The position numbers were made by a program, and so were the translations under genes. Below the pieces are notes generated by a model, which ran no database searches, was not told where the DNA came from, and was given only the letters and a program-made list of their open reading frames with translations. From Octopus vulgaris (taxonomy: Eukaryota), in contig OX597831.1 of assembly GCA_951406725.2 (NCBI GenBank), forward strand, positions 26,722,001-26,786,000: a stretch of DNA of 64,000 bases, read 5' to 3'. This document shows positions 52,431 to 52,550 of the stretch, piece by piece (position 1 is the stretch's first letter; each line of letters opens with the position of its first letter).

Positions 52431-52550
52431 CTTCCTATCCTCAGTCGAGTTCCAGATCGTCTTTGCAGTTTCGGCCGGTTACACTCGAGACTTCTCCAAT
52501 CTGGTTGACCCCAAGAAAATCTAAACTAAGAGCACTAGACTCGTTGGAAG
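52431..52550 (-). ncRNA. Second candidate non-circularly permuted hammerhead, inside an element at about 52330-52660
   Basis: Minus strand: GGTC aa CCAGATT gga GAAG TC TCGAGT gtaacc GGCC GAAA CTGC aaagac GATCTGG a ACTCGA CTGAGGA; same order and helices as 11804-11913. Confidence 0.6.

Follow-up and report, generated by a model that had tools for sequence, protein, structure and literature searches.

Hammerhead ribozymes were divided by Eckert et al. (2023; PMC10085705) into three blocks, C, G and S, each of which was assumed to be uninterruptible. According to the accessible text of that study, the permuted types SGC and CSG cleave in vitro, albeit slowly (0.004-0.19 per min), and in the descriptors for type SGC helix II must come after CUGAUGAG or CUGAUGAUG, with one extra U allowed after the core. 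A second background is provided by the Naiads, which in the accessible parts of Craig et al. (2021; PMC8557442) are reported to be without canonical hammerheads and without a described structure, to be biased towards insertion at (TA)n and to occur in partial tandems and inverted copies, with several entries, including Naiad_Ovul, being flagged as HHR_core or HHR_half_core. Here we describe an element from a 64,000-nucleotide (nt) stretch of Octopus vulgaris contig OX597831.1 (hereafter the window), which bears on both these systems. It is centered on a motif at 52430-52555 of the minus strand and is a decayed non-coding repeat, likely a non-autonomous Naiad-type Penelope-like element, whose 3' part is predicted to be a non-circularly permuted hammerhead with its chain opened between A9 and G10.1.

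The motif had been singled out by a first-pass annotation as a permuted hammerhead at 52431-52550 sharing its architecture with another site in the window, copy 1. Direct examination of the sequence located all the quoted segments on the minus strand in the places given, and the 6 nt linker between helices I and II in both copies and the GAAA-to-CUGA spacing (24 nt here versus 25 nt in copy 1) were measured as described. While a plain scan for GAAA followed by CUGANGA yields 7 raw matches in the window, including this site and copy 1 (11844-11809), a descriptor demanding helices I, II, III and X in the shared segment order returns exactly these two. The annotated GUC triplet lies at 52491-52489 and, by analogy with hammerheads, would place the cut between 52489 and 52488, as the annotation had predicted. 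The classic types I-III are not matched, as the block order is S-G-C instead of the cyclic C-G-S and the structure is pseudoknotted. Helices I, II and III adjoin the core and covary, but helix II adjoins the GAAA, with its other strand being unattached to A9 and placed upstream rather than after CUGANGA. Thus, the chain is opened inside block C, with wiring otherwise as in SGC and CSG. As this helix II strand sits at the 5' end, the intact block C of SGC is lacking; the RNA would work like an SGC or CSG hammerhead, but it fails one defining feature of SGC. Further, the SGC descriptors, as far as they are given in the accessible text of PMC10085705, would miss the opened form, because in them helix II must follow the core.

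Seven families of octopus repeats, labeled A-F and N, have the same fold order, namely a P0 strand, a hairpin, IIa, X, IIIb-UH-Ib, IIb-GAAA-IIIa, X', Ia-CUGANGA and the second P0 strand. The window motif belongs to family B, in which a long hairpin sits between the 5' strand of P0 and the helix II strand. The outer helix is the one part of the originally proposed structure that had to be given up: the register CUUCC/GGAAG was rejected, its CC being part of the hairpin, in favor of GCUUUCU/AG(G or A)AAGC, because an A at 52434, present in 12/33 copies, improves the latter and breaks the former. In families A-E no nucleotide separates the hairpin from IIa, and the gap between A9 and P0 measures 0-2 nt in those families in which the helix script found P0 there (A, B, D, E and F). 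In families A and D there are zero spare bases at the A9/P0, P0/hairpin and hairpin/G10.1 joints.

The pseudoknot-aware descriptor, which was written from the two window copies and is thus post hoc for the window, gives 2 matches there against 5 in 2248 block-wise dinucleotide shuffles. When applied to 60 other 10-kb stretches of the same genome (600 kb, 4 of the stretches flanking the window), its strict version gives 2 matches against 6 in 179 shuffles and a relaxed version 4 against 41 in 179. The strict descriptor is brittle, matching 9/30 loci of family B, 14/30 of A, 20/25 of D, 1/20 of C and 0/20 of E. The alignments too retain the helices: across 34 distinct rows of the B/C/E lineage, 93.7% of 1224 cells are paired, as against 23-46% in slid controls on the same rows, and 16 of the 36 pairs have changed on both sides; none of 500 shuffles was as high. 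Comparison of one hand-chosen copy per family, with the script taking the best-pairing register, shows helices I (5/5), II (4/4) and III (3/3) to be fully paired in all seven families, with 2-4 pair types at 11 of their 12 positions and an invariant G10.1-C11.1. Of 42 strand exchanges between families for each helix, only 5 for helix I, 6 for helix II and 4 for helix III gave full pairing. The U-H triplet is also kept (GUC, AUC, AUA or GUA) while the helix sequences turn over. These observations, in particular the recurrence of the fold across seven families, between which all six helices, the core ones included, show compensatory changes, uphold the initial proposal that selection on the fold rather than chance accounts for it, with the caveats that selection acted on the source lineages, not on the decayed window copy, and that the families may not be independent of one another but homologous. 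The annotation also did not recognize the layout as a relative of types SGC and CSG with an opened core. We regard the fold as virtually certain to be real. General searches did not recover it: Rfam gave only microsatellite-driven miRNA matches among the best 150 of 426 for the whole window, and for a 201-nt region 3 chance matches and no hammerhead match at E values up to 10.

Table. Parts of the opened hammerhead motif, listed 5' to 3' along the minus strand, with the repeats that carry it in the window
Feature	Positions	Strand	Remarks
Family B repeat copy, 5'-truncated, between TA-rich runs	~52324..52658	-	Extent from alignment with 29 other loci
P0, 5' strand GCUUUCU	52549..52555	-	P0 helix 90.7% of cells paired
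Hairpin Ph, last base abutting G10.1	52511..52547	-	Its helices 94-95% paired
Helix II strand from G10.1 onwards, GGUC in this copy	52507..52510	-	GGCC in most copies
Helix X, 5' strand, joining far ends of helices I and II	52497..52504	-	92.4% paired
Helix III strand GAAG and GUC triplet	52489..52494	-	Private mismatch at 52493
Helix I strand after predicted cut, UCGAGU	52483..52488	-	95.6% paired, 4/6 pairs changed on both sides
Helix II partner GGCC, conserved GAAA (52472-52469), helix III partner CUGC	52465..52476	-
Helix X, 3' strand	52452..52459	-
Helix I partner ACUCGA and conserved CUGAGGA (52444-52438)	52438..52450	-
P0, 3' strand AGGAAGC, 1 nt after A9	52430..52436	-
Copy 1, truncated family A repeat with the same fold, core 11815-11809	11662..11963	-	P0 5' strand lost here, kept in the family

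The window copy is 87-92% identical to its best full-length family B relatives and carries private changes: the mismatch in helix III, already recognized along with the GUC triplet in the first inspection, replaces a C present at 52493 in 30/33 aligned family B copies, and a wobble in helix II replaces a C present at 52508 in 27/33. Apart from N7, the positions of CUGANGA, GAAA and UH are conserved in 28-33 of the 33. Given the helix III mismatch, the presence of a single ribozyme and the truncation, the copy in the window probably has little or no activity, and its own cleavage must be considered doubtful; in contrast, intact copies would quite probably cleave. In such copies helices I-III would build an ordinary hammerhead core, with helix X acting as a clamp between helices I and II, an arrangement shared with types SGC and CSG. 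End-to-end stacking of P0 on the hairpin is proposed to give a nicked helix, the ends at the nick being A9 and G10.1, so that the stack would replace the missing backbone link by holding A9 beside G10.1. Since the final part of the motif to be transcribed is the 3' strand of P0, closure of the core would have to await synthesis of the whole motif. Cutting after the NUH triplet could then reduce tandem or read-through transcripts to single units (~680-850 nt), with a Penelope-class reverse transcriptase (RT) and a GIY-YIG enzyme, supplied in trans, inserting the units at TA repeats.

The genomic behavior of the families is in line with that of non-autonomous retroelements. Copies of A-F are non-coding, dispersed and 5'-truncated, end in dinucleotide runs, have (TA)n flanks in family B and occur in partial tandem and inverted arrangements, with insertion at microsatellites. 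A dinucleotide run is found within 260 nt on the 3' side at 115/125 loci versus 605/2000 random windows; a second ribozyme on the same strand is seen in 23/125, mostly 680-850 nt away, indicating partial head-to-tail tandems, and an inverted copy in 8/125, overlapping loci being counted twice among the 125. The tandem spacing points to a full unit of ~760-810 nt in family B. The open reading frames (ORFs) around families A-E include none common to different loci. The 5'-truncation, dinucleotide-run ends, tandems and inverted copies are features listed for Penelope-like elements in the accessible parts of Craig et al. (PMC8557442). The 600 kb sample yielded families C and E, which are related to B, and D and F, which are related to A; the A and B units, called dissimilar in the first annotation, have no alignable sequence in common beyond one 38-nt match at a microsatellite-like end. 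The top matches of C, D and E are 97-100% identical, implying recent spread. A first look at the genome gave 3180 candidates for the window site and 3037 for copy 1, which are not copy numbers; 13 places in the 600 kb match one of the family cores, which extrapolates to ~60,000 places in the genome (Poisson range 32,000-104,000), fragments included and with the C, D and E queries deriving from the same sample. In families B and C the sequence GTAAGT adjoins the TA run and presumably resembles a splice donor. In two loci, families D and F lie inverted with respect to each other, tail to head, and one family F copy is inserted in a Naiad remnant. Of the sequencing runs, 17 presumed to be RNA contain 0.15-0.37 of the words. 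For the family C ribozyme, contig depth in 4 such runs was highest around and just after the predicted cut; it was set aside because neither RNA ends nor expression levels can be read from contigs and because truncated genomic copies accumulate at the same place.

The connection to Naiads emerges from their tails, i.e. the last ~400 nt of 47 published consensus sequences (PMC8557442, the last few entries being left out), which were read by eye. The opened form is found in 11 of these, spanning three phyla (Bfor, Chem-3, Amil, Aacu, Anas, Movir-2, Plae, EuTe, Obim, Ovul and Esco), with imperfections in Bfor (helix I of only 2 pairs), Aacu (mismatches) and Esco (helix II); in 8 of the 11, P0 and the hairpin are also within view. 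Another 6 tails, from the nematode elements Nbra-1, -2, -3, Hcon, Hpol and Asuum, display type CSG, and in the remaining 30 neither form was seen within the ~400 nt. Family N matches the tails of Naiad_Ovul and Naiad_Obim by eye. A short motif of the octopus tail has 375 exact matches in the genome, as opposed to 0 for a reversed control. In 16/50 RT loci the core of family N follows the RT match on its 3' side and on the same strand, with the RT frames being broken; in a set of 14 extended loci, a GIY-YIG domain precedes the RT by ~2 kb in 2 and the RT precedes the ribozyme in 8. Pfam returned 0 families for four RT fragments. Thus, the suggested Penelope connection holds in that the fold sits 3' of Naiad-type RT frames, but family B itself was not found beside any ORF. 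Unlike Naiads, families A-F are non-coding. An active Penelope family of 727 amino acids (aa) was considered as a carrier of the fold and rejected, as the fold is absent from 30 of its loci except for 2 neighboring family E copies. This family is abundant, with intact frames, a C-terminal GIY-YIG domain and many inverted pairs, and very young, 150/150 scored matches being 98-100% identical; it is a candidate for the trans-acting driver.

Several observations count against the above interpretation and lend weight to alternatives. That the pairing arose by chance and was inherited by repeat copies could be argued from the descriptor having been written from two window copies and from the mutual dependence of copies within a family; moreover, the shuffle control on the 34 B/C/E rows ignores relatedness and uses a structure derived from those same sequences. 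However, the compensatory changes between families refute this, and together with the descriptor and strand-swap results, the five further families found afterwards and the recurrence in published Naiad tails they make chance almost negligible as an explanation. A different possibility is an ordinary type SGC hammerhead, in which the strand just behind CUGANGA would form helix II, while the upstream strand, P0 and hairpin would represent an off-state or be incidental. In families A and D this strand can indeed form a classic helix II of 4 pairs (2 Watson-Crick, 2 G-U) after one extra base, comparable to the extra U that the published descriptors tolerate. Yet it provides at most 2/4 helix II pairs in B, the family of the window copy, and in C, E and F, where an SGC helix II is impossible, and it is weak in N; the upstream strand, on the other hand, is complementary in all seven families and covaries with IIb, leaving the SGC alternative highly improbable. 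Against the proposed opened form it also has to be noted that the pseudoknot-free minimum-energy fold of the window copy puts G8 and A9 into the outer helix, that P0 is weak in family N, that the helix script mis-picked P0 or the hairpin in several copies, and that no published hammerhead opened between A9 and G10.1 was found in the openly searchable literature, so that tolerance of the break is a proposal. Families that are young and have spread recently show imperfections in helix X, with one mismatch in C and 3 contiguous pairs in E. The latter observation would also fit a fold kept as a signal for protein binding or recognition by the RT, or one cutting only with the assistance of a protein, with negligible unaided self-cleavage. 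The slow rates of SGC and CSG, and a lizard Penelope hammerhead, which in the accessible text of PMC11167929 is protein-assisted and whose mutants did not impair insertion in vitro, point the same way; in view of the lizard result, a role in mobility need not follow even if the octopus RNA cuts. Nevertheless, all the bases of the catalytic core, G10.1-C11.1 and the U-H triplet are kept while the helix sequences turn over, and a non-cleaving or protein-dependent fold accordingly appears unlikely.

The origin of the units is a separate matter, as an alternative derivation, from free retrozyme-like RNAs moved by another Penelope clade (e.g. the active family with the C-terminal endonuclease) rather than from Naiads, is compatible with the proposed fold. 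This derivation is a serious if less probable contender. No intact Naiad frame was recovered among 150 and 144 scored candidates, the longest open frame being 308 aa, and C, D and E are young although every Naiad frame found is broken; the intact 727-aa frame, by contrast, is abundant. The GIY-YIG domain, RT and ribozyme never occur together at one locus among the 14 extended loci. Barring neighboring insertions and simple repeats, A-F show no sequence link to the Naiad ORF in the best-scoring candidates from the 50 RT loci. However, the core that the active 727-aa family carries near its 5' end is of classic order and does not have this fold, and the family has only short matches to the A-F units at their TA-rich ends, while the opened fold occurs in Naiad tails of three phyla. 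On this basis, we lean towards family B being Naiad-derived.

Other elements of the neighborhood and other Naiad tails contain further motifs of potential interest. The window has two related minimal hammerhead cores of classic order, at 6886-6908 and 12051-12073 of the plus strand; in each, helix II has 4 bp, A9 is followed by one extra base and helix III is a palindromic stub, features which we take to be typical of dimer-forming Penelope hammerheads. At 53004-53230 (minus strand) the broken C-terminal end of an apparent Penelope GIY-YIG frame is followed by a degenerate minimal hammerhead (53029-53004); this element is separate from, and 350 nt upstream of, the window motif. A further degenerate core occurs at 57343-57369 (plus strand). 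Directly after copy 1 lies a broken frame (11400-11660, minus strand), which we assume from its motifs to resemble the C-terminal part of a non-LTR retrotransposon with a restriction-like endonuclease. The segments 26001-28000 and 48001-50000 show strong GC and AT skew (0.64 and -0.41) and are probably simple-repeat arrays. As to the Naiad tails, those of Chem-4, Movir-1, Mgal, Bpla, Mphi, Scon and Mmer have what we take by eye to be twister ribozymes, which suggests that Naiads may swap ribozyme classes. The tails of CGi, Sglo, Olur, Tgra, Pmar, Chem-1 and Chem-2 contain at the ribozyme position another conserved motif with an ACGGG-like start, a GCUUACUC-like middle and a CACCUG-like end, and those of Ptep, Smim and Dst contain CCCCUGANGA in different surroundings; these two motifs could be further structured RNAs.

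Taken together, these considerations favor, with some reservation, a joint interpretation in which the opened form represents a fourth natural break point of the hammerhead (A9/G10.1), bridged by a nicked coaxial helix and breaking the scheme of three blocks and six permutations. Under this interpretation, the non-circular wiring would be old and animal-wide in Naiads, with the core-opened permutation in a ctenophore, in cnidarians and in cephalopods and a second circular permutation, CSG, in nematodes, would constitute the hammerhead that Naiads were thought to lack, and would be present in tens of thousands of copies in the octopus genome. If intact copies cut, then a ribozyme under study for decades has a natural wiring that its most recent classification excluded, and non-circular permutations, previously from environmental contigs, would be present at high copy in animal genomes. 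The opened fold would also supply the unexplained HHR_core and HHR_half_core entries with a structure and make the ribozyme requirement of Penelope-like elements testable in the Naiad clade, while its additional helices are a natural place at which switches could be engineered into the hammerhead core.

Among described systems, the animal non-LTR retrozymes (PMC7229834; bioRxiv 10.64898/2026.07.22.740005), as presented in the accessible texts, are likewise non-autonomous, ribozyme-bearing tandem units thought to depend on Penelope elements, but unlike the octopus families they carry classic type I hammerheads; the latter study searched with type I models only, and its accessible text makes no mention of octopus, SGC or pseudoknots. 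Type CSG, described in the available part of PMC10085705 from two metagenomic sequences, has the same cyclic wiring as the octopus RNA but is opened between helix III and X, with an intact core block and neither P0 nor hairpin. The examples of type SGC (HRIMA-1 and variants), as far as that text goes, are from metatranscriptomes, with none from the genome of a known organism except one bacterial GCS candidate. SGC shares with the octopus families the block order S-G-C, the same conserved bases, a short linker between helices I and II and a helix X joining the far ends of these two helices. In SGC, however, helix II directly follows CUGAUGA, whereas in the octopus families the corresponding strand lies towards the 5' end, the break point being occupied by P0 and the hairpin.
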